Below the pieces are notes generated by a model. That model was not told where the DNA came from, did not search any database, and saw only the letters and a program-made list of their open reading frames with translations. Source: a virus. Taken from it: a stretch of 64,000 bases of DNA. Location: positions 6,090-70,089 of the IMG/VR virus record IMGVR_UViG_3300018422_000003; one strand, written 5' to 3'. Each line of letters opens with the position of its first letter. Positions within the stretch are counted from its first letter, which is position 1. The translations under genes and the position numbers were made by a program. Below, in pieces: positions 8,613-48,715 of the stretch.

Positions 8613-8896
8613 TCGACATGGAAAACAACGAGTACAAATGCACGCCACGGTGTGGGGGGACGAAAGACAATCCCTGCATGATCGCCGTAAACCGGAGCCG
8701 CGCCCGCGAGAAAGACCTGAAGGCTTTTGAGGCTTTCATTCCCGTCCGCGACGCCTATCGCGCGGGCAAGATCACCGAAGACGCATTTCTCGTGGCGCGG
8801 GCAAAGTACAAGGCTGCGGCCGACGAGTACGAGGAAGCCTTATTAAAGGCTGAGCGGATCCGAAACAACAAAGGGGGACTTAATGAAACTGACTGA
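8609..8896 (+). CDS. Small early protein
   Basis: GTGA coupling, GAGGTG SD. Confidence 0.6.
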   Translation: MIDMENNEYKCTPRCGGTKDNPCMIAVNRSRAREKDLKAFEAFIPVRDAYRAGKITEDAFLVARAKYKAAADEYEEALLKAERIRNNKGGLNETD

Positions 8897-14429: not shown

Positions 14430-14807
14430 ATGAAACAATTCCTTTTAACCGCTCTAATTTCCGCCGCCATCGCGGCCGCCGAAGTCCCGCTGAATCAGGA
14501 AGTCGTCCGCGGCGATTACAAAATCAAGGCCGTGTCCGTCGATCAGCTCCCGCTGTCCAACCCGGAATATACTGGCGGGCCGGGCCTGTTCGTTTACGTC
14601 GGAACAACCCGATGGCTGCCGGATATCGAAACATTCGACGTCACCGTATCCGTCCGCCTGCGCGATGGCCGCTCCGTGACGCGCACGCAATCCGTGCCCC
14701 GCCGCGCTCTTTTGTGGCAGACCTTCTACTTCAAAGTAGGCGCCGTCGAGACTGTCTCGGCCGTGTCCATTCAGGCCACCGCTTTCCCCACCACGACGGA
14801 TTTCTAG
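14430..14807 (+). CDS. Secreted protein (Sec signal), antisense moron in tail operon
   Basis: MKQFLLTALISAAIAAA signal peptide; beta-rich mature part. Confidence 0.7.
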   Translation: MKQFLLTALISAAIAAAEVPLNQEVVRGDYKIKAVSVDQLPLSNPEYTGGPGLFVYVGTTRWLPDIETFDVTVSVRLRDGRSVTRTQSVPRRALLWQTFYFKVGAVETVSAVSIQATAFPTTTDF

Positions 14808-29936: not shown

Positions 29937-31079
29937 TTATCCGAGGACGCGGATTGCTTTTCTGGGGTCGAGAGTCTTGACTCCAAATAAAGAATCAATT
30001 CTCACATAGGTTCTTAGGTCTTTCGCCTCGTACCAGACGCTTGCGCGAATGGTGATGTTGCCGATGCTTGCCGTGTACACGCTGGCGCCGGGCGCATTCG
30101 GTACCTTCAGCGGACGGGTGACGAGCGCGAAGGCGTTCTTGGCAAACGCGATGTTGACGTCGTGGCTGGCGATGATCGTCACGGACTGGGTGCTGACCAC
30201 AGCCGCGCGAAGCGCCGGGAAGATGGGCAGCGTTGCGGCCGAGGCGGAGTGAGCGGTGTCGGCGGTGACGTTGTAGCTGCACACGCCGAGGACGGCGCCG
30301 TGATCGAGGGTGATGATATCGCCCTTTTTCGCGTTCGCTGTCATGCCGGTAACCGCCAGCGTTCCGGCGACGATCGAGCCCGCGTTGAGCACCGACGCGG
30401 CTTGGTTGCTGGAGCAGGTTACCGTTCCGGCAATGCCCGTTACGTGGCGCGCCAGGCGGTTGCTGTTTGTGTAGCTCATCCCGAACTTGCGTGTGAGCTG
30501 ACCTTCGGTCTGCTGCGCCGGCGAGCCGGACACGTAGTCCTGATAGAACACTTGGTTGTATTTGTTGTGGGCCTTCGGTCCGAGCACGACGGAGCGATCC
30601 GTCTCGGCAACATTCAGGGTGTTGAATTTCTCCTGGATGTCCGTGCCGAGGGCGCTGATCGTGGCCGGGGTCGTTCCGGCGATGCCGGTGATATTGCCAA
30701 CGTCGGAGTACAGGCCGACGATTGCATCTTCATACGCGCCGCCGAGAGCTTCCGCTGCCGGTTTCGCGAAATCCGACTGCAAGTCGCGGATCGTCATCGA
30801 CGCTTCTTTGTCGCCGATCTCATAGACGACCTGCTTCCACTGGTCGAGGCGGACCTCGACGTTGTCGGCAGTCGGCTTTACGCTGACGAAGCTGTCGGGG
30901 TCAACGTTTGTCGCCACCATGGTGTGCGGCATGCGCGTGTTGACGACATCGCCAACGGACTGAACCTGCGCATCGAAATCACGATGCACCAGGCCTGCGA
31001 ACTTCAAAGTCGGAAAGAGCTGCATGAGCGTTTCTTGCGCCCATAGCTCGGGTTTGTATACGTCTAAAAGTGCTGCCAC
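29937..31079 (-). CDS. Major capsid protein, P22 coat-like
   Basis: PELWAQETL...VHRDF...GDVVN..P N-terminus; I-domain-like insertion; NIAFAKNAFALVTRPL; RIDSLFGVK. Confidence 0.9.
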   Translation of the reverse strand: MAALLDVYKPELWAQETLMQLFPTLKFAGLVHRDFDAQVQSVGDVVNTRMPHTMVATNVDPDSFVSVKPTADNVEVRLDQWKQVVYEIGDKEASMTIRDLQSDFAKPAAEALGGAYEDAIVGLYSDVGNITGIAGTTPATISALGTDIQEKFNTLNVAETDRSVVLGPKAHNKYNQVFYQDYVSGSPAQQTEGQLTRKFGMSYTNSNRLARHVTGIAGTVTCSSNQAASVLNAGSIVAGTLAVTGMTANAKKGDIITLDHGAVLGVCSYNVTADTAHSASAATLPIFPALRAAVVSTQSVTIIASHDVNIAFAKNAFALVTRPLKVPNAPGASVYTASIGNITIRASVWYEAKDLRTYVRIDSLFGVKTLDPRKAIRVLG

Positions 31080-31161: not shown

Positions 31162-31950
31162 TTACTGGCCCGGTTTCGGACCGCGAACGTACTCCCCGCT
31201 CGTGAACTTGGCGTGATTGGCGGACACGAAATTCATGTCCTGCCACTGCTCGTAGGGGATTTCTCTCCCTACTGCGCCTGCGCCGCCGCCCGATCCTGCG
31301 CCGCCGCGAGGCGTGCCTGAGCCGGGAGCCGCCGTAGCTTTAAAAAGCTCCGGATTTGCCTTGAGGAAGTCGGTCTTTACGTAAGCCTCCAGCGGGATTT
31401 CCGCCTCGGCTCCGTACTGATCCTTGCTCTTCACGACAAACGCGCCGGCATCGTTTTTCACAACCCGGTCCGCGAGATGGATGTAGTCTCGATCCGCGTT
31501 GAGGGCTTGCTCTTTGCTCAGCGCCGCGACGACGGCGGATTTGCGCTCGGCTTTCGAGTTGTTCTCGATTGCCGTCAGCTTCTCCGCGCGCTCATCGGTG
31601 AGCTGCTTTTCGAGGGCCTTCAATCGCTTCATTGCGGGATGGTCGTCGCCGAGCTGATCGTCCTTCTTCCCGCCTTTGGTATCTGGCGGGGCGGCCGAAC
31701 GCGCCCGGAACTTCCCTTCGTCGTCCTTTTCGAGCAGGCCTACTTCGACCAGCTCATCAAGGGTCAACGCTTTGCGCTGCGAGATCTGCGTGACGGTATC
31801 GTTCAACCGTCGGATCTGCGCTGCGGTCCCGTTAAAAACATCTGCGCTAACAAACTTCGACGGATCGAAGGTTGAAGTATCAGGCTTGCCATCGCTGGCC
31901 GGGATGCCCGTTCCCGTGCCCGTGTTACCGGGTTGGTTTGTGTCGCTCAT
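31162..31950 (-). CDS. Capsid scaffolding protein
   Basis: Coiled coil, NPELFK...GSG C-terminal motif, directly upstream of capsid. Confidence 0.8.
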   Translation of the reverse strand: MSDTNQPGNTGTGTGIPASDGKPDTSTFDPSKFVSADVFNGTAAQIRRLNDTVTQISQRKALTLDELVEVGLLEKDDEGKFRARSAAPPDTKGGKKDDQLGDDHPAMKRLKALEKQLTDERAEKLTAIENNSKAERKSAVVAALSKEQALNADRDYIHLADRVVKNDAGAFVVKSKDQYGAEAEIPLEAYVKTDFLKANPELFKATAAPGSGTPRGGAGSGGGAGAVGREIPYEQWQDMNFVSANHAKFTSGEYVRGPKPGQ

Positions 31951-32057
31951 GCGGAAAAGGTTTTGCACGAAGCTGCCCGGCCGGTGGGTCCAAGGAAAAC
32001 CCACCCGCGCCGGGCGCCCGTTACTGATTGCTCTTTCGCGCGTGGCGAGAGAAAGTT

Positions 32058-35000
32058 TTATCGGAGGGCCGGAAGGTACAGCGCCGCGCGGTTGGCCGGG
32101 CAGGCGACCGTCACGAAATACGCCGTGTCCTCGATCAGATCCGCGATCGATACCGAGCGGTTGCGGCTGCCGCCGCCGTCCGATATGCGTGTCCCGCTGC
32201 CCGGATCGGACGACGTCGAATACCAGACTTGGCAGGCCGCCGCGCCAGGCATGTCGTAACGAATGGTCGCCGCCGTTGGGGCCTGCGCCGAAATGCGGTG
32301 ATTGAAAGCCACGGCAAAGGCGGTATCGAGCGCGAGGAAATCGACGCCCGCATTCCGCTTGTCGGTAGCCGCCGCGAGAGCCGGAGCGCCGGGAGCGAGC
32401 CGGAAGTTGGCCGGGTCAACGGCAGAGCCGAGGCAGACCGATCCGCACTGCATCAGCGCCGCCGCGATCCGGGCGTTGGCCGTTGTGCCGCCGCTCAGAC
32501 AGGTAAACGACCCTGCCGGAAAGCCCGTCATCGCCGTATTGCAGTCCGATTGAGTCCAGGTATAGGTGCTGCTGGTGGACGCGTAATGCGCGTCGCTGTC
32601 GGTGTTTTTGACAGTCGGGATTACCACGTTTCCCGCCGTGGTCGCGTTCTTGTTTGCGCCGGCGAACTTGACGTATTGCCCGGTGAGCGAAGGCGTTGAG
32701 CCAAAGGCCTGCCAAGCGTTCTGGCCCACGATGCCGCCGCCGTTGTCGGTCGAGGCGGTGAAGAAATTATTGGTTACGCTCAGGCCTTCCCCGGTGCCAT
32801 AGATGAAGCTCAGCCATTCGCCTTGCTTGCCCCGGAAATCAATCGTCGTATTGTGATCGATCACGACATCCTCGGTTGTGAGGTTGAGCGCAACGGTATA
32901 GCCGCACAGCCCGCCGCCGACGTCAGCGGTCGGACTCGCGTCCCAGACCCGGTTGTCGAGCGCGTACAGCAGGTTGTTTCTGAAGACAATCCGTTTGGTG
33001 GGGCCCGCGCCAACACCGTCCGCATACGTGTCCTGCCCGTTGACATGAAAGACGCTGGCGCCGTTGCGGAAGATGTTATTCCGCACCATCACGTCAACGC
33101 CTTGGTTGCCGGTGTTGGTGGACGTTCCGCGCGGGCTGACCGCGATGAAAGGTCCACACGGTGTCCAGTCCGCCCAATTGCCGTCGTATAGGTTGCCTTC
33201 GATCACGGCGCGCTGAATCTGCTTGAACTCGGTTGCGTGCCGCTTGGGATAGTAGCGGCCGTTCGATGTGCTCGATCCGGTCCGGTAGGCCGGGTCGGAG
33301 TAAAAGGTGTTGCCGCGTATGGTGATGTCGGTAACGGGCGTTGCGCTGCTGCCCTCCTGCGCGAAGATGCTAATTCCGACAAGGTTTTCAAAGCGGTTGT
33401 TCTGGAACTTGACGTAAGAGGAATTCGTGAAATCGATGCCCGTCGTCGTGTGATGGTAATAGTTGTGGAGGGAGCCTTGAATAATGCCGTTGCGTACCGC
33501 GAGCCATGCATTGAAGTCCTTCACGAGACTATCGACGATGGCGCTATTGGTATTAGTTCCGGTGATTACCATTCCCGTAAGGAACCGCGTCGGCCATCCG
33601 CTGGAGCGGACCACGGAGCGGTCGAGAATCATGCGGCTGGTGTTGGCCGCAAAGGTCAGCAGGGGCGGTTCCATGCCGGGATCGAAGGTGACCGCGCCGC
33701 CGCTGACGTATGCGCCATTTCCGGCCGCGTCGTCGAGCTGCAGCGTATTCGGTCCGAGGACGGTGAAGGTATGCGCGCCGTTGGCCGCCGTGTTCCCGAG
33801 CACGCCATCGATTGAGATCGCCTCGCGGAATCGGGCCTCCCCGCAATCGGACGCGCACGTCTGAGCGTAGTTGAGCCCGGTCTGCATCCAGCGATTCGTG
33901 AGCAGCAGTCCCGAGGTACTGGTGGCGAGGATGCCGTCGAGGCCGGTGATCGGCGTATTCCGAAACTCCATCTGTGAGCGCCGCGATCCGTCCGCGATCG
34001 CACCCCAACTGCCGGCGAAGGTGAAGGTCGCCTCCACCCGCGGTGAGGTCACGGTCGCGGTAAACGATGTGATCTCCATCCACGGTTCAACGGGCAGGCC
34101 GTGCGGAGTCTCGGTCGTGATGACGATGGGCGTTGCGTTGGTCGCGCTGGTGATCCGGTGCGCGAGCGCCTGTGTCGCTTTGCCGCCGCCCGCATAGCAG
34201 GAGCTTGTGGCGCAGGCGATTGAGGAATTCTGATAGCTGAACTCCGTCGTATTGTGTACAGCGATGGGCGCGGTCAGATTCGGCCCTCGGCCGGGGAATC
34301 CGGTCACGCCGCTTACGGTCACCATTTGGTGCGTAATGAAGCCGTGCGGCGCGCTGGTGGTCATGCGTCCCGCGTCGGTTACCGCCGTGATCGTGAACTG
34401 GCGCGGCGTGTGATTGGCGACCGATTCCGACGTGAAATCGATCCCGACGAAGCGCCAGCCTGCGGTCGTATTCGTGTTGATAAAAACGCTGTGCGCGTTG
34501 CCGTCATTGAAGTTGTGCGGCCGGATGAGCTGCGCCATATTCGGCAGATCGGCCTCGGTCACGCGCGTGCCTTCGGGCGGCAGCAGAGCATGCGCGCTGG
34601 TTCTCACCACGCAAGTGCCCGCCCCGCTCTTGGCCGGGAGCGTAACCCGCTGCGCGCAGGACAGCCCGGCTGTAATGGTGACGGTATGATTCAGCGCCGT
34701 ATCGGCCGCGCCGCAGGCCGTGAGCTGCGTCTGTAGCTGGCCGCATGAGGTAACAGCGAAGTCCGATCCGTTGATGGTGGGATAAGCCGTGTTGACTTCC
34801 GCCGGCGCGGTCGGCGGTACCGGGTGCACTTCCGGCTGAGCCTCCAAGGTGACGGTGGCAACGTCATCCGAGCACGTATACCCGGTTCCTGGCGCGTCGC
34901 ACTCCCAGGTGGATGCATTCGAGACTGGCTTGAAGTAAACGGTCGAGCCAGGAACGGCGCTGAAGGCGCACCAGCGCCGCAACTGGCTATAGGCGACGGA

Positions 35001-35186
35001 TGTGATTGTCGCGGTCGAACTTCCCAGCGCCGATGTGGCGCCATAGGCGCAGTAGGAGGCTCCGCCGGTGGCGGTGATCTCCCACTTGGCATATACCGTT
35101 CCGTGCGAGACAGAGACTACAAGATTTGAGATCGTCTGAGCGAACGATACCGTCGCCAGCAGCAGCGTGAGAAGTAAGAGTTTCAT
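32058..35186 (-). CDS. Large secreted Cys-rich beta-helix protein
   Basis: MKLLLLTLLLATVSFA-Q signal; ITxAT...TTxxPHG repeats; parallel beta-helix repeats (ITIRGNTF, VIEGNLY, VRNNIF, IDHNT); 20 Cys. Confidence 0.8.
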   Translation of the reverse strand: MKLLLLTLLLATVSFAQTISNLVVSVSHGTVYAKWEITATGGASYCAYGATSALGSSTATITSVAYSQLRRWCAFSAVPGSTVYFKPVSNASTWECDAPGTGYTCSDDVATVTLEAQPEVHPVPPTAPAEVNTAYPTINGSDFAVTSCGQLQTQLTACGAADTALNHTVTITAGLSCAQRVTLPAKSGAGTCVVRTSAHALLPPEGTRVTEADLPNMAQLIRPHNFNDGNAHSVFINTNTTAGWRFVGIDFTSESVANHTPRQFTITAVTDAGRMTTSAPHGFITHQMVTVSGVTGFPGRGPNLTAPIAVHNTTEFSYQNSSIACATSSCYAGGGKATQALAHRITSATNATPIVITTETPHGLPVEPWMEITSFTATVTSPRVEATFTFAGSWGAIADGSRRSQMEFRNTPITGLDGILATSTSGLLLTNRWMQTGLNYAQTCASDCGEARFREAISIDGVLGNTAANGAHTFTVLGPNTLQLDDAAGNGAYVSGGAVTFDPGMEPPLLTFAANTSRMILDRSVVRSSGWPTRFLTGMVITGTNTNSAIVDSLVKDFNAWLAVRNGIIQGSLHNYYHHTTTGIDFTNSSYVKFQNNRFENLVGISIFAQEGSSATPVTDITIRGNTFYSDPAYRTGSSTSNGRYYPKRHATEFKQIQRAVIEGNLYDGNWADWTPCGPFIAVSPRGTSTNTGNQGVDVMVRNNIFRNGASVFHVNGQDTYADGVGAGPTKRIVFRNNLLYALDNRVWDASPTADVGGGLCGYTVALNLTTEDVVIDHNTTIDFRGKQGEWLSFIYGTGEGLSVTNNFFTASTDNGGGIVGQNAWQAFGSTPSLTGQYVKFAGANKNATTAGNVVIPTVKNTDSDAHYASTSSTYTWTQSDCNTAMTGFPAGSFTCLSGGTTANARIAAALMQCGSVCLGSAVDPANFRLAPGAPALAAATDKRNAGVDFLALDTAFAVAFNHRISAQAPTAATIRYDMPGAAACQVWYSTSSDPGSGTRISDGGGSRNRSVSIADLIEDTAYFVTVACPANRAALYLPALR

Positions 35187-35193
35187 GGATTGG

Positions 35194-36483
35194 TTAGCGA
35201 TACGAGATGCCCGTAGCCTCAAAAGCAAAGCGCAGCAGCTTCATCGTGTGGCTGCCCGCATCGCAGGAATAGGTCTGCCATAAGAAGTACATGGAGCCGG
35301 TTGGGAGCGAGGACAACGGGACAGGCGTCGACCACGATCCGCCGTTGACGCGGTAGCGCGCGTTGATTGTGCCCGCGACCGACGATTCAAATTCGACCGT
35401 CATGATGTTGCTTAGAGCAAAGGCCGTCGCGGTTGCCGTCAGCACGGGAGTACCGGCCGTGCGGACTTCCCACTGCCATGCGGTGTCGGAGGCGGTCTCG
35501 GTGCAGGCGTTGTTGCTGATCGCTCGCAGGCCGATAAAGTTAGCGGGCGTTGTGGTGAGCACGTCCGAAAATCCGACGCGAAAGCCGTACTGCACCGTGA
35601 AGAATTCGTCGGTGCCAAAGATGAACTGAGCCCGCCAGCCTGCATGCGTGCTGAGATCTTTGATGGATACCCGCGAGGCTGAGAGCGATAGCGAAGCGCG
35701 TCCGTTGATGCCCGAGGCGGCGAGCGATACGCCTGTGCCTTCGGCCCATGCGCCGGTCGGTGTGGTGCCGTCCGATCCGCCGGCAGTCCCGCTGACCGAG
35801 GTCTTCCATCCGAGTTGACCGAAGCCGTTCACGCCGGCCGTATTCGAGCCGCCCGGGAATTCGTCAACCAGCCGAAGAATACTCGCGTCGAACGGATCAA
35901 ATTCGGCCGGTGGCGTCGGTCCTTGCGCTTCCCAGCCTGCCGCCGTGCAGATATAGAGTTTTTGTCCCGCTGAGCCGCTGCGGTATACATACACGTCGTC
36001 GTACTCGCTCGATTCATTGCAAGCGCCTGCGGCCGGGGCCGAAGTGCCGGATGGCGGCTTGAATGCGCCTGTGTAATCGTTGCGCGCGGACCATGCGTTC
36101 GGCTGGGCGAGCCAGCCTACATATCCGTCAACGAGAGAAATTTTCGGAAGGGTGGATCCGGTTGCATAGACGACTGAGATCGCGCCGTTGTCGCCGCCGA
36201 TAAATTTAACCTGCTTCCAGGCGCCGTCGATGCAGCGGTATTCGTCGGTGCCGTCGAGGATGTCCTCGGTACGGACCGCTTCTCCGGTCGCGCAGGAGCC
36301 GGGGAGCGCTGAGCTGAGCACGACCTTCCACGGAATCGAGGCGGTAGAGTTGGCGGCGCTGAAGACGGTCGTGATGTTTGAGACGTCCGTGCCCTCGCCG
36401 CCGCCGGTGGACGGGGGAGGGAAGGACTGAGCCGCCGCGCTGAGCGCGAGCAGAAAGAGAGAGAGGGTCTGTTTAGAATTCAT
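35194..36483 (-). CDS. Secreted fibre/lectin-like protein
   Basis: MNSKQTLSLFLLALSAAA-Q signal; two P-x2-C...Y-x-C...W modules; C-terminal beta-sandwich; 6 Cys. Confidence 0.75.
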   Translation of the reverse strand: MNSKQTLSLFLLALSAAAQSFPPPSTGGGEGTDVSNITTVFSAANSTASIPWKVVLSSALPGSCATGEAVRTEDILDGTDEYRCIDGAWKQVKFIGGDNGAISVVYATGSTLPKISLVDGYVGWLAQPNAWSARNDYTGAFKPPSGTSAPAAGACNESSEYDDVYVYRSGSAGQKLYICTAAGWEAQGPTPPAEFDPFDASILRLVDEFPGGSNTAGVNGFGQLGWKTSVSGTAGGSDGTTPTGAWAEGTGVSLAASGINGRASLSLSASRVSIKDLSTHAGWRAQFIFGTDEFFTVQYGFRVGFSDVLTTTPANFIGLRAISNNACTETASDTAWQWEVRTAGTPVLTATATAFALSNIMTVEFESSVAGTINARYRVNGGSWSTPVPLSSLPTGSMYFLWQTYSCDAGSHTMKLLRFAFEATGISYR

Positions 36484-36904
36484 CGGTCCAGCCCTTCACG
36501 CGCGCCACCAGCGTGCCGCTCGATGAGCTGACATAGAGGCCGTCTTTGAATTCCCCGCCGCCGTCCGCCATCGGGACAACGTAGAAGCTGTTCGCCGCGA
36601 TCGTTACGTCCTTGGCCAGCCCGTAGGAAGCGCCGTCGCCGTCCTGGATCGTGAACGTGGCGGCCGAAGCGGTCAGGTTGGAAATGATAAACGTCTTGAC
36701 GTGGATCGTCTTCACGGCGAGGGCCGTGAGCGATACAGGCATCAGAACTTTAGCCTGGATGTTGCGCCCGCTGAAGGGAGCTTGATTGGGCGGCGCGTTG
36801 CGGATGTCAGCCTGCGCGCTCGCCGGAAGAATCGTGAGGGTCAGCAGCGCCACAAGCGTTGCGGCCCGGGAAAGGGTCTGCACGCCGGGTATTTCGCGCG
36901 TCAC
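36473..36904 (-). CDS. Small secreted beta-sandwich protein
   Basis: LVALLTLTILPASA-Q signal; IISNLTASAATFTIQD...GLYVSS. Confidence 0.7.
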   Translation of the reverse strand: MTREIPGVQTLSRAATLVALLTLTILPASAQADIRNAPPNQAPFSGRNIQAKVLMPVSLTALAVKTIHVKTFIISNLTASAATFTIQDGDGASYGLAKDVTIAANSFYVVPMADGGGEFKDGLYVSSSSGTLVARVKGWTDEF

Positions 36905-36915
36905 CGAGGGACGGT

Positions 36916-37569
36916 TTAGCTTGCCAGATCTTTGACCAGACTCGAGACGATCTCTTTGACCTTGGCGAGCACGACGGCGCGGTTGGCCGGGCTGAGCCCG
37001 TACCAGGGGTCGATCCGCTGATTCCCCTTTGCTTTCTTGTGCTCTTCCTCGCGCCGGAAGCCGATATGGACGCTCGACGGGTTTTGGCTGACGATCCCGA
37101 TACTGTTGAGCATCCGGCCGCTTTCCTCAAGATCCCGGTAGCCGGGCTTGCCCTTGGCGCGCTTATACTCCGAGCGATTGTTATAACGTACGCTCTTCTT
37201 GGAGTTGGTGATCTTCGCCTTCACCGCGTCAGGCTTGGCGACCGCGCCCGCCGCCTTTTGCTCCTTGCCCTTGTGATGAAAGGTGGCCAGTCCCGCGCGC
37301 TTGATTTTGAGGATGTCTGAGGCGGTCAGGACCTCGCGGCCTCGCAGGTTTGTCTTGGTGCGGCCCTTTCCGGTCAGCGGTATATAGACCGGGCTGGCCG
37401 AGTACGGCTTGGCGGATTGATCGAGCAGGTTTCGCCCGGCTCGCGCGCGGGCGGTGATCTCATGCACCGCCACGCCCGCGAGATAGGTGATGTTGGAAGG
37501 CGCAAGAACCGGGGCCTTGAACCGGAGCAGCTTATCGGCATACATGAAAACGGAGGTGCCGTAAGCCAT
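36916..37569 (-). CDS. Virion morphogenesis protein (Mu gpG/HK97 gp10-like)
   Basis: Basic; LEESGRMLNSI...KAKGNQ...PWYGLS; AGGAG SD. Confidence 0.7.
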   Translation of the reverse strand: MAYGTSVFMYADKLLRFKAPVLAPSNITYLAGVAVHEITARARAGRNLLDQSAKPYSASPVYIPLTGKGRTKTNLRGREVLTASDILKIKRAGLATFHHKGKEQKAAGAVAKPDAVKAKITNSKKSVRYNNRSEYKRAKGKPGYRDLEESGRMLNSIGIVSQNPSSVHIGFRREEEHKKAKGNQRIDPWYGLSPANRAVVLAKVKEIVSSLVKDLAS

Positions 37570-38638: not shown

Positions 38639-41600
38639 TTAGTACCTTGAGCCGGCCTGTATGACTTTTTCAATCGGACGGCCATCGGGGAACTTCGTGA
38701 TTCCGTGCTTGCGGAATACGGCGAGGACCTCTTGGCGCTCATGCTCGTCCAGCGTTTTGACGTGATCGATTTCGTGCAGCAGAGACAGCGTGTTTTTCAA
38801 AATGGTCTCATTACCGGAATGCAGCGAGTACTTCTTAAATTCAGAGATCGTAGAACCGCGCTCTGTCGACACGGTGTCGCCGGTCACGCGGCCGTACTTA
38901 TCGCCGTCGTAGCTGATCGCGTCCATGCGGCGCAGGTTGCGTACTTTGAAATAAATCTGCGACTTCGTGTTAGCGGCTTTTTGAATACGAGTGAAGACGT
39001 AGCTGCCGCCGCCGCTTTTAATATCGGCGGTCGCTGAGCCTGCGCCCTTGCGTGTGATTCCGGTGCGGAGCTTTTCGGTGGTCGATACCATCGAGGCATT
39101 GTTGGGCAGAGCCACGTCGAAAAATTCGTTTAGCTTGGCGGACGCATTGCCGAACTTGATGTCATGAACGAGACGGTACTCGCCCAGTTGTTCGTTGAGC
39201 TGTTGCTCCGTTAGATCAAAACGGTACTGATGACGGTTGCCTGCCTGCTCGCCGTGTTTATCCCATCGCTGCTCGTACTGACCCTCGGGCTTATATTCGG
39301 GCAGCTTGGTCACATCCGGAACGCCGAGGCGGCGCGACCAATACGCGCGCATTTCAACCACGCGCGCCGCGTCGGACGTGTTCTCCGTCTTGTGTTTAGC
39401 CACCAGCTCCTTCCATTCGGCGGACGTGTGCGCATTGGCGACGTACGTCGCCTTTTGTAAATACAGCAGCTCCTCGTCCGTCTTCGTCGCCGCCTTCGTG
39501 TTCAGCCCGGTCTCCGATAGCCTTTTGAGCGCGTGCTCGACCTGCTTGGGATCGACCGCGCCGGGGACCATTACCTCCAGCGTTCCGTGGAACGTGAATG
39601 ACTTCGTGTTTGTGTCCCCCTTGCCCTCGCTGTACGGAATGTAGCGAACGCGAACGCCATCCTTCCAGGTGACGTTATACTGCTGCAGCCCGGCGCCCGC
39701 GCCTGTATACACCGAGCTGAGCGACACCTGCTCCTCAGCGACGATTATGCTGCCGTTTTTGATTTCCTTGGAATCAACCCGAGCCCCGGTTTGCTTGACG
39801 GTGAACTGCTTTTCTCCCGTTTGTATGGCGCCTTTATTCGCGGCTTGATCCTCCAGCTTCTTCAGCCGGGCGCGCTCTTTCGTGACCGCGCTCGTCCAGT
39901 CTGTGAATTCCTTTTTGAGCTGTTTCACCTGCTCGATCGACATCTGCCCGCCCCATCCAAAGGCCCACGCCTTGGAATCATCGGGCGTGCTCAGCGACAC
40001 GTTACCGACTCCGTTCACAAGATTGCTGAAGATCTGCTTGGACACGGGCGCGTGCGGGATTGGGACCAGCTCCACGTCGGACTTCGATGATGCCTTGTTG
40101 CTGTCGTCGTCATCGTCATCATTTTTAGCCACACCCGGATCGAGGCCGAGGCCGCGCAGGAAATCGTCCTGCGCTTCAAGCCGCAGCTTCATCCGCAGCA
40201 TTGTGCGGTCGCCCGCTTTGGTTTTTTCCTGCCACACGAGAACGTTCTGATCCTCGATCTGATCCTTATCGATAGCCAGCGTTTTGCCTTGCCAGCCGTT
40301 AGCTTTGGCCGTCGCGACATGCGCCAGGTTGCGCTCGCCAAGGTGAGCCAGATCGCCTGTCTCCGCCTCTTCCTCGGGCGCCGGATCATCCAGCACAACG
40401 CCCTTTTTCTTGGCGCGCTGTGCCCGCGTGTAAGCGTTGCGGGCGAGCCGCTTGGCCTCCGCCTCATCCTCGACGTTCAATACCGTAGCGGCCGCCGTTT
40501 GCGCGGCGGCGGCAGCTACATCGGCCGCCTTCTGAGCTGACGAGGCGGCCTCGGTAACATCCGATTTCTCGTCCTCGTCGATTTCCTTCTGCAGCGATTT
40601 CAGCTCCGATAAAGGCAGCCCATCGAGGAGGCCCTGCTCGTATTCGGACAAACCGTTGTAGCCGAGCGCCTCATGCTTTTTAACGATTTCTTTCTGCTCG
40701 TGTTTTTCCTGCTCGGTCGGCGCGAGATGCGGCTGCTTCTTCTGAGCGCTCGTCGGGGTGAGCGCGACCGTATCCGCGTCGTTAAGGAATGTGCTTTTGA
40801 AATCCGCGCCCGGGGTAACGAGGTGCGTCAGCGTGCCGTCCGCTTTGCTCCAGACGTAACCGCCCTTGACGCTGTCCCATGTCGCGGTCCAATTCGTATT
40901 CTTGTTTTGATACTTCGCCGCGAGGCCGGGCGGAGGTTCATCGGCGGCCTTTTTCGTCGCCGCCTTCGGAGGCTTCGGCGCCGCCGGCATGATTGGCGTC
41001 TGCGCGACCATGGCTTTGTTCTGCGAGGCCTTGGTCGTGCCGACGACCGACTTCTTCATCTGATCGGGAGACGTGACGGTATCGGTCGCCAGCGTGCCGT
41101 CAGGCTTGACCCAGACGTAACCGCCTTTGCCGCCGTCCCACTTTGCCGACCATTCGCTGTACTGGTTCTTGTAGACGGCCGCCATTCCGGGCGGTACCGG
41201 AGCCGCGTTGGCTTCGGCGGCGGCCTTTGCCTCGGCCGCCAGCTTTTCGGCGGCAGCGAGCTTGGCTTCGTATTCCGCTTTTTCGGCTGCCGCCTTTACT
41301 TTGGCCGCAGCTTCCTCGTTAGCTTTTTGGAGCGCCAGCGCATCCGCCGCTTTCTGATTGGCGGCGGCAATCGCATCCGCATGTGCCTTTTTCGCCGCCG
41401 CCATCTTGGCCGGATCGAAGCTGAAATGCGGGTCGCTGGTCAGCTTGCGATAGTACGTTTCGAAATCCGAGCGCAGGCTGTTCTTGCGCGCGATCGCCGC
41501 CGCCTTGAATTTGGCTGCGGCAGCCGGGCCGCCCGGATGATTCGCCGCGTAGCCTTCGACCGCCTTCAGGTAATCCGCGTCGCTGATCTTTTCAGCGGCC

Positions 41601-43153
41601 TCGATCGCGGGCAGGGAATCGGCCGGATTGAATTGGACCTTGCCCGCCTTGATGGCCTTGCCAAGCGTGTTGTAGAGCGGCTCCTGCTCACCGAAGCTTT
41701 TATTCGGGTGATAGTCGACGCTGAGCTGATCGTTGCCGATGTGCTTGTACGCCTGCGCTTTGTCGATCCCGTAGATTGCGCCCGATTTGGTCCGCAGGAA
41801 CTGGCCGGGGTGGCCGTCATGATTGCTGATCAGCCAATCGAGAACGTGCTCGCGCTGGATCTGCTGAATCTCAAACGCCGACAACGATTCCATCGGTACG
41901 GGCTTGTTCTGCCCACCGTTCGTGAAGTCGATTTTCTTTGCAAGATCCGGAACGAATTTCTGAGCGGATCCGAACTTCCCGCCGAGCGTCATCGTGTGAA
42001 CTTCGACGGCGGTTTGAGGGTTGACCAGGCGCGCTACATTAGCCGCCGCCTCCTCCGCGTACGGAATGATTTTCTTTGACGCATCGACGGGTTTGAACAG
42101 CCAGTCGTTGCCCGCCGGATCGGTCCAGATCTCCTTGGCGTGAGCGCCGCCGAGGCCGGGGTTAGCGGACTTGAGCGCCCATGGTTTCGGCGCAGGCGGC
42201 TTGGGCGCTTCCGGAGGCGCGGGTGGTACGTAAGTGCCGGGTCGCTTCTCAAAGCCCAACGCTTCGCGCGTGGCGGCCATAGCGACCGCCTGCGGCATCT
42301 TCCCGCTGGCGCCGGTATCGGCAGCCTTCGGCGCGGGCATGTCCGCTGGCCACGGCATCCAGACGTGACGGCAATTCCAGCCGCCGCCGTAGCGCAGCGC
42401 CGGGAGCAATGGCGTTTTTGAAAGCTGCTTCAGCTCCGCATCCATCGCGTGAATATCTTTGAGCGTGTACAGCTTGTCGATTTTCGCGAGGCAGAACGGG
42501 CGGTTCTTAATGTCCTTCGGCCCGCGATAGGTGAAGTTTTTGATTCCGGCGGTTTGCCAGATCTTCATCGACACGGTCCGGTCGTAAACAACCAGCGCCG
42601 TGTCCGCGTACGTAGCCGCGTAGTTCTTCAGCTTGAGGTCGAGCGTTGCCGCAATCTTGTCGATGAGCGGCGCCCGCGCGGTACCGAGCAGCGCGTTCTG
42701 GATGACTGCCTGCCCGACCGATTTCACGGCCTCTGTGCCGAGGCCGGACAGGTAATCGTAATCGATATTCTTGAGCTGCTTTAGGGCGTTGCGATCGAGC
42801 GGCGCGAGCCGTTCGTCGGGAAGCTTCAGCGCCTTCACGGTGGCGATCGCATTCTCGACCGATTGATCGAAGCTGCCGGTCAGCTCTTTTACCAGCTCGG
42901 GATAGCCTTCGCTGTTGAGCTGCTTTTGTAGCTCAGCCTGGAGCTGCAGCAGCGATTGCGCCTGCGCCGCGACCTTCGGTGTCAGCTCGCCGGCGGAAAG
43001 GATTTCGATGACGCGCGAGCGCATGGCAGCGACCGTCTTCTTCAACCCGGCTTCGAACACGGCGAGCGCCTTGGCCTGCGAGGTAATCGAGGCGTTGGAG
43101 ATTTCGGTAACCGCGCCAAGCTGGCGCTCCGGTTGATTGTTATAGCGCGGCAT
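38639..43153 (-). CDS. MuF (SPP1 gp7-like) head protein with kinase-like and ART-like extensions
   Basis: YRGPKD..NRPFC...GGWNCRH (MuF); WLFKP/AEEAA/DWLISNHDGH/IDKAQ (HipA/PI3K-like); C-terminal H...VST...YVFTR...NETIL. Confidence 0.85.
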   Translation of the reverse strand: MPRYNNQPERQLGAVTEISNASITSQAKALAVFEAGLKKTVAAMRSRVIEILSAGELTPKVAAQAQSLLQLQAELQKQLNSEGYPELVKELTGSFDQSVENAIATVKALKLPDERLAPLDRNALKQLKNIDYDYLSGLGTEAVKSVGQAVIQNALLGTARAPLIDKIAATLDLKLKNYAATYADTALVVYDRTVSMKIWQTAGIKNFTYRGPKDIKNRPFCLAKIDKLYTLKDIHAMDAELKQLSKTPLLPALRYGGGWNCRHVWMPWPADMPAPKAADTGASGKMPQAVAMAATREALGFEKRPGTYVPPAPPEAPKPPAPKPWALKSANPGLGGAHAKEIWTDPAGNDWLFKPVDASKKIIPYAEEAAANVARLVNPQTAVEVHTMTLGGKFGSAQKFVPDLAKKIDFTNGGQNKPVPMESLSAFEIQQIQREHVLDWLISNHDGHPGQFLRTKSGAIYGIDKAQAYKHIGNDQLSVDYHPNKSFGEQEPLYNTLGKAIKAGKVQFNPADSLPAIEAAEKISDADYLKAVEGYAANHPGGPAAAAKFKAAAIARKNSLRSDFETYYRKLTSDPHFSFDPAKMAAAKKAHADAIAAANQKAADALALQKANEEAAAKVKAAAEKAEYEAKLAAAEKLAAEAKAAAEANAAPVPPGMAAVYKNQYSEWSAKWDGGKGGYVWVKPDGTLATDTVTSPDQMKKSVVGTTKASQNKAMVAQTPIMPAAPKPPKAATKKAADEPPPGLAAKYQNKNTNWTATWDSVKGGYVWSKADGTLTHLVTPGADFKSTFLNDADTVALTPTSAQKKQPHLAPTEQEKHEQKEIVKKHEALGYNGLSEYEQGLLDGLPLSELKSLQKEIDEDEKSDVTEAASSAQKAADVAAAAAQTAAATVLNVEDEAEAKRLARNAYTRAQRAKKKGVVLDDPAPEEEAETGDLAHLGERNLAHVATAKANGWQGKTLAIDKDQIEDQNVLVWQEKTKAGDRTMLRMKLRLEAQDDFLRGLGLDPGVAKNDDDDDDSNKASSKSDVELVPIPHAPVSKQIFSNLVNGVGNVSLSTPDDSKAWAFGWGGQMSIEQVKQLKKEFTDWTSAVTKERARLKKLEDQAANKGAIQTGEKQFTVKQTGARVDSKEIKNGSIIVAEEQVSLSSVYTGAGAGLQQYNVTWKDGVRVRYIPYSEGKGDTNTKSFTFHGTLEVMVPGAVDPKQVEHALKRLSETGLNTKAATKTDEELLYLQKATYVANAHTSAEWKELVAKHKTENTSDAARVVEMRAYWSRRLGVPDVTKLPEYKPEGQYEQRWDKHGEQAGNRHQYRFDLTEQQLNEQLGEYRLVHDIKFGNASAKLNEFFDVALPNNASMVSTTEKLRTGITRKGAGSATADIKSGGGSYVFTRIQKAANTKSQIYFKVRNLRRMDAISYDGDKYGRVTGDTVSTERGSTISEFKKYSLHSGNETILKNTLSLLHEIDHVKTLDEHERQEVLAVFRKHGITKFPDGRPIEKVIQAGSRY

Positions 43154-43551: not shown

Positions 43552-45072
43552 TTACTCTTCTTCTTCGGCGCCGGGGCCGCCGGGCGCTGGCATTTCAAGC
43601 GCCGGATCTTTCATCGCCGCAATGTCGGCGGTGATTATGGCTTTGCGATCTTCAGGCAGCGAGGTGAGCAGCTTGAATACGGCGCGCTCCATCAGCTCCT
43701 GCCGCGCGCTCAGCGGCGCTCCCGCGGATTGCAGCAGGATCATTGCGTCGATGAGGTCCTTGGCGGTCGATAGATCGTACTTACGCGCGTACTGGACGTT
43801 GCCCTTCCATTCCGAGCCGAGGTATAGCCCGGCGAAATAGAGGATCTGCTTTACTGCGTCCTCCTCCCATCCGGCCATGCCTGCCAGGATCTTCTCGGCT
43901 TCGCTGAAGTCCCATTCCTTCGATACGCCGGACTGCGTGTCGTTCGCGCCGCCGCTGGTTTGGAGCGCCTTGCCCTGGATGCCCATGTGGCGCAGCGCCA
44001 GCGAGAACATCGTTCCGAAGGCTTTCCAGCCGGATTCAAACGGGCCGCTGTCGGGGGATACGTAGAAAAACTCTTCCTGCTCCTCGGGGTTGAGGTGCAT
44101 GATGGTTGCCGCGCCGACGCCCGCATCGCCCGGTGACTTGAGGCTTTTGAATACGGGGACCGGAAACATTGAGCTTTCGAGGTTCTCGTCGAAGCTCGAA
44201 ACCCAATTGGTCAGCAGCTGCGCAAACTTGGCCGCGTCGCGCAAAAGCGAGTCGCCGCGGAAAGCGCCGAGGCGTACGTGATACATCGGCACGACCGGAA
44301 TTGCGCCGACGCTGTTGCGCCCGGTGCTTACGCCGATCCAGTGGCCTTCGACCTTCTCAAACACGATCCATTTCTCGAGAGACCAGTACCGGAGCTGCTC
44401 GGTGCAGGCGCTCGAATTCTCATCGAGCACACTGCCCTGGGACGGGGCCTCGCGCCGGAACAGAATCTCGATGGGCCTGCCGCGCTCGTCGAGCCGCCAG
44501 TTGAGCATGTCCTCACGCGGAATATGCACGAGGTACGGCCGCAGGTTTTGTTCGTGCTGATCGCGCCGGGTGATGACGGGCCGCTGCGGATCCGCCTGCG
44601 GCATGTCGATCAGGACGAAGTCGCAGCCGGTGACGGTTTTCGATGTTCGAACGGAGCTGAGGAATTGCGCGAGCGATTGGCCCTGCAGATCCGCGTCATC
44701 GAGGAACGCCGCGAAGGCGTCTCCGTTGGGCGTGATCATTGCGTTCTCGGGCTTGCCGACCGTCGCTGCGTAAAAGTCCACAATCGGGCCGACCAGATTC
44801 ACATACACAGCCCGCGCCAGCCGGTGGCAGTACTTGTCGTGGCGCTCCATCGGGTACTGCCAGAGGTAGTTCTGCGTCCCGGTGTACACGCCCGAAAGGC
44901 CGGGATCGGTCTTCGGTGAGAGCATCGCCGACGATCCGGCTGCCGCCGCCGGGAGAGGATTCCGGGTGCTCGGATAGAGCGGCCCGCCGTCGTAGTGATC
45001 CCGATAAAATTTCCAGAGCGCGTTTCCGCTCGTATATACGGGGTGCCTCTGCTCTAACGCTTTGTTATCCAT
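43552..45072 (-). CDS. Portal protein (SPP1/DUF4055-like)
   Basis: HPxY, YxxRLxRAxY, CDFVLIDMP, RPYLV, LNW, IPVVP, SGVSK motifs; upstream of MuF. Confidence 0.9.
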   Translation of the reverse strand: MDNKALEQRHPVYTSGNALWKFYRDHYDGGPLYPSTRNPLPAAAAGSSAMLSPKTDPGLSGVYTGTQNYLWQYPMERHDKYCHRLARAVYVNLVGPIVDFYAATVGKPENAMITPNGDAFAAFLDDADLQGQSLAQFLSSVRTSKTVTGCDFVLIDMPQADPQRPVITRRDQHEQNLRPYLVHIPREDMLNWRLDERGRPIEILFRREAPSQGSVLDENSSACTEQLRYWSLEKWIVFEKVEGHWIGVSTGRNSVGAIPVVPMYHVRLGAFRGDSLLRDAAKFAQLLTNWVSSFDENLESSMFPVPVFKSLKSPGDAGVGAATIMHLNPEEQEEFFYVSPDSGPFESGWKAFGTMFSLALRHMGIQGKALQTSGGANDTQSGVSKEWDFSEAEKILAGMAGWEEDAVKQILYFAGLYLGSEWKGNVQYARKYDLSTAKDLIDAMILLQSAGAPLSARQELMERAVFKLLTSLPEDRKAIITADIAAMKDPALEMPAPGGPGAEEEE

Positions 45073-45198: not shown

Positions 45199-45438
45199 AT
45201 GACAACCACACGAGCCGATAGGCGGGCGAGCCTGACCGCCGACGAAGCCGTTAAGATGTGGGCCATTGCCGGAGGCGAAGAGCAGAAGTTTCGGGATATA
45301 TTCGAGCTGCTCGTTACGATTCAGCTCGCGCGCATGCCTCTACAGACAGCGACGCCTCGCTCACCTCTTAATCCCTACGGCTCGGAGGGCAATCCGGTGG
45401 ATGTCAGCGACCGGCTGCGCGGGAATGAGAAACCTTAA
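45199..45438 (+). CDS. Small antisense ORF between portal and endolysin
   Basis: C-terminal 20 aa nearly identical to N-terminus of the 55365 ORF. Confidence 0.5.
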   Translation: MTTTRADRRASLTADEAVKMWAIAGGEEQKFRDIFELLVTIQLARMPLQTATPRSPLNPYGSEGNPVDVSDRLRGNEKP

Positions 45439-45959
45439 CCCTCGGTAATGAACTTCAGCGCCTCGGCTGCGGGCGATCCGCGGAACAGAGCCGCCTCCGC
45501 CGAGCGGCGTTTGGAGAGGCCCGCAAAGACGGCTGTCTCGCCAGTATCCGGGTGCTTCCCCTTGTTCCAAAACTTAAATTGAGCCGCCGCGCCCTCGTAA
45601 TCGGCGTGGTTGAGCTTGCGCAGCAGCGTACACTCGATCGTGTTCCACCGTGACTTTCGGATATTGTGAACAAATGAGACAAGAGCGTCGAATTCGTTCT
45701 GCGTCAAAGGTACCGTCACCTTCCGGCGGACATAAGCAGCCGCCTCCGCGACGTCCACGCGTAGCAGCCCCTCGGCCTGCGCGGGTGTGATCCGCTGGCC
45801 GGGTGAGACCATCGCTTTGGTCGTGCCGAAGCCGATCGTCAAAATCCCGGCCGGGCAACGGTACGCTTCGAGCCGGGGCTGACCGCCCTCGGCCTCCGCG
45901 TGGCGGATGATTACCAGCGCATCCTCGGTCGGCCTCAAATCAGTAACAGGGTTTCTCAT
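45435..45959 (-). CDS. Endolysin, GH24 lysozyme
   Basis: E...AYRCPAGILTIGFGTT, LTQNEFDALVSF, GLSKRRSAE. Confidence 0.92.
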   Translation of the reverse strand: MRNPVTDLRPTEDALVIIRHAEAEGGQPRLEAYRCPAGILTIGFGTTKAMVSPGQRITPAQAEGLLRVDVAEAAAYVRRKVTVPLTQNEFDALVSFVHNIRKSRWNTIECTLLRKLNHADYEGAAAQFKFWNKGKHPDTGETAVFAGLSKRRSAEAALFRGSPAAEALKFITEG

Positions 45960-46246
45960 CAGCCCATCGGCTCCAAAATCTCAAGAACGAACGTCCGCTT
46001 GCCTGACTTTCGTCCGGCGCTCGTGACGACGCTATTGCCGATCAAATACTTCTCGCCCGGCTCAGCGGCCGCCGTCCCGATCCATACCGTCGCGGTCGTA
46101 GAGGTCTTGGTGCTCACGGACGGTTCTGTGAGCGGCGAGGGAACGGTCCATGTGCTGGTGGCGATCGATTCGCCCTCTTGTAGCCAGCCGCTCCAATCGC
46201 GCGTGTAATCAAGCTCCGCCAAAGTTGTCGATTGAAAAATTTTCAT
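45959..46246 (-). CDS. Fibre adaptor-like small structural protein
   Basis: LDYTRDWSGWL..GESIATSTW...TATVW...TSAGR pattern. Confidence 0.7.
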   Translation of the reverse strand: MKIFQSTTLAELDYTRDWSGWLQEGESIATSTWTVPSPLTEPSVSTKTSTTATVWIGTAAAEPGEKYLIGNSVVTSAGRKSGKRTFVLEILEPMG

Positions 46247-47682
46247 CGTGGTATCGTCCTGTTCTCGTCCGCGTTGATGACCGTACGGAAGTCTCGGGGT
46301 GTCCCCGCCTCGCGCAGCTCCGCCGCCGTTTGGATCGTGCGGGCCGCCGCCGGGGTGTACGCCGTCGCCTCAATCTGAAGCCCGGTGGCCGCCGACGATC
46401 CGGCCGGGGCCGTGCTGGAGCCAACGCCAGAGAAGATCCGCCCGCCGATACCAGCCGAGGAAGCAAGGCCCGTCGATGCGCCCGCGCCGCCGAAAAGCTG
46501 CCAGCCGGTCCCCTCGGTAGAGGCCCTTGCGGTGATGCTGAGCGCGCCGGAGAAGACTTGGCCGCCAGATCCCGCTGACGTCGCCGTCGCCGTGCTGGTG
46601 GCTGATCCGCCGCCGATAACGATCTGCTGCCCGCTGCCCGTACTTTGCGCCGCCGGGATGGCTGAGCCGCCCGAGCCTGCAAATACCAGCGCTCCCGAGC
46701 TGCTGGCCTCCGCCGTAGCGATCGAGGAAGCCGCGCCGGTTGCGCCTTGAATGCCTGATCCGCCGGTCAGCGCAGCCGCCGTACTTTGTCCGGATCCAGA
46801 GAATACCAGCGCTCCCGATCCGGCGGCCTGCGCCGTCCCGGTTGCCGCGCCTGCGCCCGCAAACACCAGAGCGCCGTTTGCTGCCGCCGTGGGCGCGCTG
46901 GTGGCGCTGTCCCCGGCTGAGCTGAAGCTCAGTGAGCCGGTCGCGGCCGCCGCGCCAGGCGTAACGCTGTTTGCGCCCGTCCCGGCAAACGCCAGCGATC
47001 CGGAGCCGATGACTGAGGCCGCTCCCGCCGCCGCGCCTGCTCCTGCAAATTCGAGAGAACCGGTTCCGGCCGCCGCCGCTGTCCCGGTCGACGCGCCTGA
47101 TCCCGAGACGGCGCTGCTGATCGTTCCGCCGCTGAAGTCATCGAGCCGCCCGGTTTGGGCGAGCTGGACGAGGCCGAGGTATCCGGCCGCTGTGACGGAG
47201 GAATCGGTCGCGCTGAGAACTTGCGTCCAGGAGCCTGCTGCGGCCTTGTAATAGCCCTTGATCTGATTGCCGATTGCCTCGATGCCGACCGAATCGCCGG
47301 CGGAAACTTCCTGGTTGACCGCGCTGGCAATTAGAGTTTGCGATCCGGCGACGGTCTTGTAAAGGCTGAGCTGATCCGTGCCGCCTGACTTTTGGACGTG
47401 CAGGAAGTAGTTGCTGACCGAGCCGGTGCCGGGGCTGGTGATCCGGAGCGCGACCTCGAAATGGTCGGCTGAAACGGGAACGGTGACGTACGCCTCCGCA
47501 TCGGGGCCGTAGGTTGCCGCGTTGTAATACGCGGAGCACCAGGACGCGTTTGATCCTGTGACTGCGTTTCCGTTTATGTTCAGGCCGCTATCGCCCGCGA
47601 ACAGACCGCCGGTCCAGACACCCGAGAGTGTTCCGTTCCCGCGGTTAAAGTTGTCGAGAAGCGCGGTCGTCGGGAATGCCAT
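46243..47682 (-). CDS. Fibre protein: ConA-like head plus Gly/Ala/Ser repeats
   Basis: DNFNR...DDFSGG beta-sandwich, then ~20-aa GxLxFxGxG repeats. Confidence 0.7.
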   Translation of the reverse strand: MAFPTTALLDNFNRGNGTLSGVWTGGLFAGDSGLNINGNAVTGSNASWCSAYYNAATYGPDAEAYVTVPVSADHFEVALRITSPGTGSVSNYFLHVQKSGGTDQLSLYKTVAGSQTLIASAVNQEVSAGDSVGIEAIGNQIKGYYKAAAGSWTQVLSATDSSVTAAGYLGLVQLAQTGRLDDFSGGTISSAVSGSGASTGTAAAAGTGSLEFAGAGAAAGAASVIGSGSLAFAGTGANSVTPGAAAATGSLSFSSAGDSATSAPTAAANGALVFAGAGAATGTAQAAGSGALVFSGSGQSTAAALTGGSGIQGATGAASSIATAEASSSGALVFAGSGGSAIPAAQSTGSGQQIVIGGGSATSTATATSAGSGGQVFSGALSITARASTEGTGWQLFGGAGASTGLASSAGIGGRIFSGVGSSTAPAGSSAATGLQIEATAYTPAAARTIQTAAELREAGTPRDFRTVINADENRTIPR

Positions 47683-48675: not shown

Positions 48676-48715
48676 AAGACGGCCCGCTTCTCACGAGGCG
48701 GGCCGTTTTGTTTTT
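48676..48715 (+). terminator. Intrinsic terminator
   Basis: ACGGCCCGC...GCGGGCCGTTTTGTTTTT. Confidence 0.8.

Follow-up and report, generated by a model that had tools for sequence, protein, structure and literature searches.

Three genes with signal-peptide-like N-termini lie inside the head-gene cluster of a tailed soil phage, and the question raised by this locus is what exported proteins could be doing in such a place. The phage is represented by a linear 70,089-bp IMG/VR virus record (IMGVR_UViG_3300018422_000003; CheckV completeness 100%), for which the sole sequencing run listed is a soil metagenome (DNA). Bases 6090-70089 of this record, a stretch of 64,000 nucleotides (nt), were analysed here and are called the window. 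Its minus strand carries a siphovirus-like late cluster, running from terminase through portal and scaffold/coat to tail genes, and the three genes, named A, B and C (32058-36904), stand just before the scaffold gene. On balance, and with moderate confidence, we favour the reading that A-B-C is a cassette of exported glycan-binding or glycan-degrading proteins, similar to phage morons or auxiliary metabolic genes (AMGs), which would be made with the late genes and act in the envelope or matrix.

The cassette and its boundaries are laid out as follows (window positions; aa, amino acids):

36916-37569, minus strand: conserved 217-aa gene, upstream boundary of the insert; 55% identical to a 218-aa protein of the related contig L019 and about 40% identical to one in a further contig, L024
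36473-36904, minus strand: gene A, 143 aa, GTG start; predicted small exported protein, 0 Cys, probably beta-rich
35194-36483, minus strand: gene B, 429 aa, ATG start; 6 Cys, two Cys-bracketed repeats, lectin-like C-terminal half
32058-35186, minus strand: gene C, 1042 aa from its ATG, 20 Cys; FN3-like domain, predicted split beta-helix with FCCH-like inserts, FN3-like domain
31951-32057, minus strand: structured spacer that separates C from the scaffold gene, with a weak terminator-like hairpin at 32016-32002
31162-31950, minus strand: scaffold gene, downstream boundary of the insert (phrog_206, E 6.3e-6); its N-terminus matches the scaffold start of L019

The junctions are tight. An 11-nt gap separates the stop of the 217-aa gene from the start of A, A and B overlap by 11 nt, and 7 nt lie between B and C. 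This agrees with the original prediction, made from the sequence alone, which had described three consecutive minus-strand genes with overlaps or gaps of 11 nt or less, and which had also counted correctly the 6 Cys of the 429-aa protein and the 20 of the protein of about 1040 aa. The same prediction had placed the genes between a morphogenesis gene and the scaffold gene. The scaffold side of this statement stands, but the supposed morphogenesis gene, encoding a giant protein of 1504 aa, gives no Phage_Mu_F match and belongs to no Pfam or PHROG family, and small minus-strand genes of 150, 89 and 217 aa intervene between it and gene A. No Pfam or PHROG family was obtained for the 217-aa boundary gene either. 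Gene C could be read from an upstream TTG at 35228, giving 1056 aa, and in alignments the homologues of C begin at the ATG. The scaffold gene is spaced more loosely from C, at 53 nt if its start is a GTG and at 107 nt if it is the ATG corresponding to the scaffold N-terminus of the relative.

Between positions 29500 and 39000, no sigma-70-like promoters were found against 1.9 expected, although acidobacterial promoters may differ from the consensus used, and no Rfam families were detected. The lack of such a promoter, together with junctions of 7-11 nt, fits a read-through of the cassette with the late genes. Terminator-like sites overall are not enriched (14 found vs 10.6 +/- 3.3). A Shine-Dalgarno 4-mer match precedes 11 of 23 late genes, the GTG start of A having no clear site. 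All three frames are intact, and their third-position GC (0.73-0.80) is like that of the neighbouring genes. For the 107-nt spacer that follows C, a folding energy of -49.5 kcal/mol (z -2.44) was computed, and a hairpin is present in the spacer upstream of the scaffold gene in both phages (31951-32057, minus strand, in the window; 8614-8777, plus strand, in L019). This shared hairpin may set the level of scaffold and coat expression.

The comparison with the IMG/VR contig L019, which shares 61% identity in its coat protein with the window phage, defines the cassette as an insertion. The order of genes in L019 is a giant gene (1611 aa), a 188-aa gene, further genes, a 146-aa membrane protein, a 96-aa signal-peptide protein, the 218-aa gene, scaffold and coat. 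The 218-aa and scaffold genes are only 164 nt apart, and A-B-C is absent. Since L019 passes directly from the 218-aa gene to the scaffold gene, A-B-C is an insert. The membrane-anchored 146-aa protein (7111-7551, plus strand) and the 96-aa signal-peptide protein (7657-7947, plus strand) of L019 are encoded immediately upstream of its 218-aa gene, and no similarity was found between A and these small exported proteins of L019. In this group of phages, exported accessory genes seem to accumulate around the conserved 217-aa gene of the head cluster.

Proteins exported by the Sec pathway and cut by signal peptidase I start with a basic n-region, followed by an uncharged hydrophobic core of 7-15 residues and by small residues at positions -3 and -1. 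The N-termini of A, B and C correspond to this scheme, with a basic n-region, an uncharged core of 13-15 residues, and a small-x-Ala motif followed by Gln (ASA-Q, AAA-Q and SFA-Q), just as the original prediction had described them:

36815-36904, minus strand: signal peptide of A, residues 1-30, LPASA then Q; MTREIPGVQTLSRAATLVALLTLTILPASA before the predicted cut and QA after it
36430-36483, minus strand: signal peptide of B, residues 1-18, LSAAA then Q; MNSKQTLSLFLLALSAAA before the predicted cut and QS after it
35139-35186, minus strand: signal peptide of C, residues 1-16, VSFA then Q; MKLLLLTLLLATVSFA before the predicted cut and QT after it

Neither a lipobox Cys nor a twin-arginine motif is present in any of the three, the first Cys being residue 64 in B and residue 46 in C, with none in A. 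When a crude rule of our own was applied to 68 rough gene calls of the window, the cassette genes passed in 3/3 cases, against 1/65 of the other calls at their first start and three more from internal starts only. With such pass rates (3/3 vs 1/65), the clustering of signal peptides is not a matter of chance. The only other call passing at its first start is a 125-aa open reading frame (ORF) located between tail genes (14430-14807, plus strand; MKQFLLTALISAAIA followed by A), for which no NCBIfam or PADLOC family was found.

This feature is shared by the relatives of C, which align from the same Met and in most cases carry signal peptides too. N-termini were counted in the 111 proteins of 760-1200 aa among 149 matches listed. 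A hydrophobic core within the first 45 residues was present in 94/111 of these near-full-length homologues, and 80/111 passed a stricter signal-peptide rule. The junction formed by a small residue and Gln right after the core, with which the signal peptides of A, B and C all close, appeared in 52/95 homologues vs 266/2220 (12%) of control windows.

The organisation of C is that of a large secreted protein built from recognisable beta-rich modules, some of which can be placed on the sequence:

34170-34361, minus strand: E1_FCCH-like beta-barrel insert (PF16190), with motif copies at residues 266-283 and 345-363
32607-33659, minus strand: predicted main right-handed beta-helix region, about residues 510-860, weak PF13229
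32100-32321, minus strand: C-terminal FN3-like domain, about residues 956-1029, with the pair Cys985-Cys1029

The E1_FCCH-like barrel (residues 276-339) is above its gathering score (E 4.2e-8; 33.6 bits vs a cut-off of 29.5). The original prediction had attributed repeats of the form ITxATxxxPxVITTxxPHG to the beta-helix. These do exist, as one exact copy (345-363) and one degenerate copy (266-283), but they fall within the E1_FCCH-like inserts and not in the beta-helix. When 12 members of the C family were compared with Pfam, Pur_ac_phosph_N (FN3-like) was matched by 8, Beta_helix by 6, E1_FCCH by 3 and fn3 by 3. The six members matching PF13229 did so at E<=0.01, the best at 1.3e-8, and the beta-helix region shows nearly invariant Asn, Asp, Arg, Glu and Lys columns in an alignment of 91 sequences. 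A profile of five C sequences found only FN3 domains in the PDB, through weak matches at both ends.

The cysteines of this family come and go together. In the same alignment, the pair 148-177 has both Cys in 77 rows, one only in 1 and neither in 4; the corresponding counts are 8, 0 and 74 for 158-192, 8, 0 and 79 for 677-761, and 68, 2 and 3 for 985-1029, and pairs 96-105 and 444-448 stand at 17/17 each. Being gained and lost in pairs, these residues point to structural disulfides, formed outside the cytoplasm, and this pairing, combined with the signal peptides, suggests that the whole C family is extracytoplasmic. Cys-richness, which had been singled out in the original prediction, is real in B and C but is not special to the cassette, two tail-region proteins of the same phage being also rich in Cys and lacking a signal peptide: one of 1418 aa with 18 Cys (17630-21886, minus strand) and one of 936 aa with 9 (14819-17629, minus strand), the gene of the latter containing an 87-nt direct repeat at 15267-15590.

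The family was collected by an exhaustive HMMER search, which returned 1015 proteins at E<=1e-3, 309 at E<=1e-10 and 64 at E<=1e-30. The best full-length relatives are 36-37% identical to C, with coverage of residues 5-1032 at E 2e-156. Over its full length C belongs to a family of secreted FN3/beta-helix proteins of Acidobacteriota, whose domain order and conserved Cys pairs it shares. A word-index search with C returned no protein besides C itself. A pattern scan of species-representative genomes with the C family gave two loci, both on large contigs of Acidobacteria/Bryobacterales metagenome-assembled genomes. Within a sample of 201 genomes of the order Bryobacterales, homologues were found in 12 genomes at E<=1e-10 and in six at E<=1e-70; in a sample of 301 genomes of the phylum, the centre genome alone matched; and 5/77 genomes of one GTDB family contain a full-length homologue. 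It is probable that the host of the phage is a Bryobacterales-type acidobacterium.

Five genomic contexts of C homologues were examined, and all are chromosomal and belong to Bryobacterales-type Acidobacteriota. In four of them (G001, G002, G305 and G447) a beta-CASP RNase gene adjoins the homologue, the other neighbours being Usp, two-component, ThiI, FAD-oxidase, VIT1 or M36-peptidase genes; the fifth homologue, that of G427, has an integrase gene at a distance of about 4 kb. The neighbouring beta-CASP/RMMBL ribonuclease (loci L002, L021, L022 and L023, that is, G001, G305, G002 and G447) is 71% identical between two genomes and is often accompanied by tandem Usp genes. None of these five genomes holds a homologue of A or B at E<=0.01, and their weak coat-like matches are on other contigs or megabases away from the C homologue. 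On the viral side, no match was obtained when C, B and the alignments of the C family and of A were scanned against IMG/VR (pattern scan), and tblastn with A, B and C against 50,697 GenBank phage records gave no homologue.

A maximum-likelihood tree was built with 26 rows, comprising the phage C, 20 of the 149 listed metagenomic hits, chosen to span that list, and the five chromosomal proteins. The phage protein groups with P0003, P0006 and P0010 (support 93/89) and with P0004 (100/99), on a branch that is long (1.27 vs a median of 0.69), and the beta-CASP-linked orthologues form a separate clade (100/100). No genome with a nearer relative of C was recovered among 401 class-level or 77 family-level genomes. 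C was likely transferred from a cell to the phage.

A and B are more isolated. A word-index search with A found a single homologue, P0155, at 78% identity; the N-terminal sequence of P0155 is not that of A yet keeps the shape of a signal peptide. By the language-model features of the ESM Atlas, A falls nearest to viral clusters without a name, whose proteins are 132-145 aa long (score 0.92-0.93), and its match to phrog_16194 ('tail protein') is weak (E 0.015). A PDB match to the RgpB C-terminal domain (E 0.45) was non-significant and was discarded, and alignments of A and of the coat protein scanned against JGI metagenomes gave nothing. In B, the Cys are at 64/84, 155/179 and 327/407, and two repeats of the form C-x(19-23)-C-x(2-3)-G-(x)-W can be recognised. 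No sequence homologue of B was found in the word index, IMG/VR, GenBank phages, the five Acidobacteriota genomes or the PDB. Its nearest Atlas clusters are all viral (score 0.92), one being named after Mtd_N and another having Mtd_N in 15% of its members. In a low-confidence Atlas model (predicted TM score 0.48), residues ~200-429 resemble viral ConA-like and SO2946-like_C proteins (TM by target 0.76-0.83). These likenesses of B are to be taken as leads from modelling. The possibility that B is the target of a diversity-generating retroelement, as Mtd is, was considered and rejected, the record containing no RVT_1 match and no direct repeat that involves gene B. A, B and C show no paralogy with the tail proteins of this phage, and they match no head or decoration family in Pfam or PHROGs, searches in which RcGTA proteins were not directly compared.

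The following course of events can be proposed. A tailed soil phage would have received an accessory cassette within its cluster of head genes, and transcription of the late head genes would run through A, B and C. After crossing the inner membrane by Sec, the products of the three genes would be freed of their signal peptides and would form disulfides as they fold outside the cytoplasm. C would be a phage copy of the cellular secreted FN3/beta-helix family, and is probably glycan-active; B would be a lectin-like binder with phage-fibre-like features, and A a small beta-rich partner. Late in infection, the three would most likely bind or cut polysaccharide of the infected cell's envelope or matrix, and the phage might benefit through the escape of its progeny, by avoiding re-adsorption to debris, or through the exclusion of other phages. 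A, B and C would not be parts of the virion. The original prediction had mentioned such a late-expressed secreted module, acting on the host surface or matrix, as its alternative; this module fits the evidence and is adopted here, its biochemical activity being what we infer.

It has to be noted that several points weigh against this proposal. Export of the three proteins by Sec is predicted from heuristic rules, and the beta-helix of C and the lectin fold of B are suggested by heuristics, weak Pfam matches and Atlas leads; on C itself, PF13229 covers residues 534-630 at E 0.0022, with 18.1 bits vs a cut-off of 25.9. A, B and C drew no match from NCBIfam or PADLOC, and in C no catalytic residues, no CAZy-type family and no recognised glycoside hydrolase, lyase or carbohydrate-binding module (CBM) were found. 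The definition of the insert comes from L019 as the sole relative spanning the slot, the contig of L024 stopping before it. The subclade nearest to C (P0003, P0004, P0006 and P0010, all metagenomic) could itself be phage-borne. The tetranucleotide make-up of the cassette, at the 87th percentile of windows of the same size, is not foreign to the phage, and this phage-like composition, added to the viral Atlas clusters nearest to A and B, suggests an old resident and not a fresh capture. Lastly, as no tyrosine integrase is present in the virus record, the classic model of a moron expressed in the lysogen is not obviously applicable.

Other explanations have been weighed with the same data. The three genes could be AMGs of a nutritional kind, whose products would be exported to break or bind environmental polysaccharide, such as soil organic matter; they would nourish the infected cell or lysogen and would not act on the host surface. 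The origin of C in a cellular secreted family, from a lineage reported as polysaccharide degraders, would be in keeping with this, as would the secreted M36 peptidase gene that adjoins the C homologue in G001 and the polysaccharide-binding and -degrading auxiliary genes that, according to PMC6172770, are carried by soil viruses linked to Acidobacteria. We nevertheless judge it unlikely, since the location in the late head cluster implies expression shortly before lysis, when feeding would be of little return, since the absence of an integrase and of any coat homologue (E<=1e-20) in the 201 Bryobacterales-order genomes gives no sign of a lysogenic life, and since no glycoside hydrolase or lyase family was found. 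Improbable to a higher degree is the idea that the cassette is passenger DNA, gained by illegitimate recombination and of little or no function for the phage. The C family is otherwise cellular and the closest relative lacks the cassette, as would be expected of such DNA, but the frames and signal peptides are intact, third-position GC is strong (0.73-0.80) and composition phage-like, A has its 78%-identical homologue elsewhere, and C, on its long branch within its clade (1.27 vs median 0.69), is not a near-identical copy of a host gene.

The original prediction had favoured a head appendage, in which A, B and C would be the base, fibre and enzyme of a virion part, folded with disulfides in the periplasm and attached to capsids or tails at or after lysis. 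The genes are indeed embedded and tightly coupled within the head module, the Atlas clusters nearest to A and B are all viral and include some that carry domains of fibre type (Mtd_N, SO2946-like_C), siphovirus tail tubes are decorated on their outside by FCCH-like domains according to PMC13576161, and in L019 this neighbourhood also encodes a membrane protein and the exported 96-aa protein. This appendage is, in our opinion, very improbable. L019 has a very similar coat (61% identical) and scaffold and yet lacks the cassette, so that the synteny expected of a head component fails; the homologues of C are free-standing, secreted and chromosomal in all five contexts, not phage-linked, with no A, B or capsid genes nearby, a distribution that the original prediction had itself named as counting against the appendage; and no similarity to head, decoration, capsid or tail families was found, nor any paralogy with the tail proteins of the phage. 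Moreover, we know of no tailed phage that assembles virion parts through the Sec pathway. The stricter version, a base-fibre-enzyme complex exported by Sec, folded in the periplasm and acquired by capsids or tails only at lysis, is more doubtful still; if true, this Sec-routed complex would be a virion appendage assembled outside the cytoplasm. The least credible explanation is that the N-termini are not working signal peptides, being start-codon artefacts or membrane anchors of proteins that stay in or at the cytoplasm. It could be argued from the heuristic nature of the call and from the GTG start of A, without a clear Shine-Dalgarno site, but cores of 13-15 residues are too short for typical membrane anchors and are followed by small residues at -3 and -1, homologues of both C and A retain the feature, and the paired Cys fit export. 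The cassette of exported proteins acting on the infected cell thus continues to be the reading that we favour.

The rest of the late cluster, to which the tail genes with the tape-measure protein also belong, on the same minus strand, includes the following features:

48714-50045, minus strand: large terminase
45435-45959, minus strand: lysozyme-type endolysin, between the terminase and portal genes
43552-45072, minus strand: portal
38639-43153, minus strand: giant 1504-aa protein, just after the portal region
29937-31079, minus strand: major capsid protein of P22-coat type (PF11651, E 5.8e-26; phrog_283, E 4e-54)

The giant protein is kept in all three related phages, with 1504 aa in the window, 1611 aa in L019 (710-5545) and 1546 aa in L024 (718-5358). 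In the window phage it contains a weak kinase-like segment (TIGR03843, E 0.013, residues 428-467), and its gene an internal 108-nt direct repeat at 40826-41194. A 479-aa ORF without family adjoins the endolysin gene (46243-47682, minus strand) and shows direct repeats with a period of 60 nt at 46670-47103.

If the proposal is true, a soil phage of Acidobacteriota devotes about 7% of its 70-kb genome to its own exported proteins, made with the head genes, among them a large beta-helix protein, secreted and derived from the host lineage. It would offer a testable case of a phage that reshapes, from inside and before lysis, the envelope or polysaccharide matrix of a major polysaccharide-cycling phylum of soils, as well as a way into a so far uncharacterised family, that of some 1000 secreted FN3/beta-helix proteins. 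No direct precedent for an exported cassette in a phage head module was found in the literature, supplements not being covered, and the comparison has to be made with systems that share some of its traits.

The nearest of these are perhaps the morons, of which lom and bor of lambda are examples and whose usual hallmark is expression in the lysogen. The cassette resembles them in consisting of extra genes between conserved late genes, absent there in a close relative and targeted to the envelope by signal peptides. It differs from morons and accessory loci, as defined in PMC7067206, in being a three-gene, translationally packed block of 4.8 kb, for which no promoter of its own was found, only a weak terminator-like hairpin, and no integrase in the record; expression of the cassette in a lysogen is therefore doubtful. 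As regards the polysaccharide-binding and -degrading auxiliary genes of Acidobacteria-linked soil viruses, described in PMC6172770, the likeness is that of a carbohydrate-related gene of the host lineage in a soil virus of a likely Acidobacteriota host, whereas the cassette has no recognised glycoside hydrolase, lyase or CBM and is a three-gene exported block inside a head module.

With the beta-helix tailspikes and depolymerases of phages, C has in common that it would be a large right-handed beta-helix protein of a tailed phage, plausibly glycan-active. It departs from them in its predicted cleavable signal peptide, in lacking a virion-adaptor N-terminus, in its position in the head and not the tail cluster, and in its relatives, which are chromosomal and secreted, with no phage homologues in 50,697 records. 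A precedent for tailed phages that export their own late proteins by the host Sec before lysis is given by lysis proteins such as the secreted endolysin Lys44 of fOg44 and the SAR endolysins, as treated in PMC6116005. These are peptidoglycan hydrolases, whereas this phage has a separate endolysin (45435-45959) and A, B and C show no lysis-family similarity. The outward-facing FCCH-like barrels of siphovirus tail tubes, reported in PMC13576161, are a reminder that such domains serve on surfaces. The closest known counterpart of C is the Bryobacterales-type secreted FN3/beta-helix/FN3 family itself, with which it shares the signal peptide, the domain order, the FCCH-like inserts and the Cys pairs, at 32-37% identity, and from which it differs in being encoded by a virus, in its longer branch and in its coupling to A and B, which are absent from the chromosomal loci.

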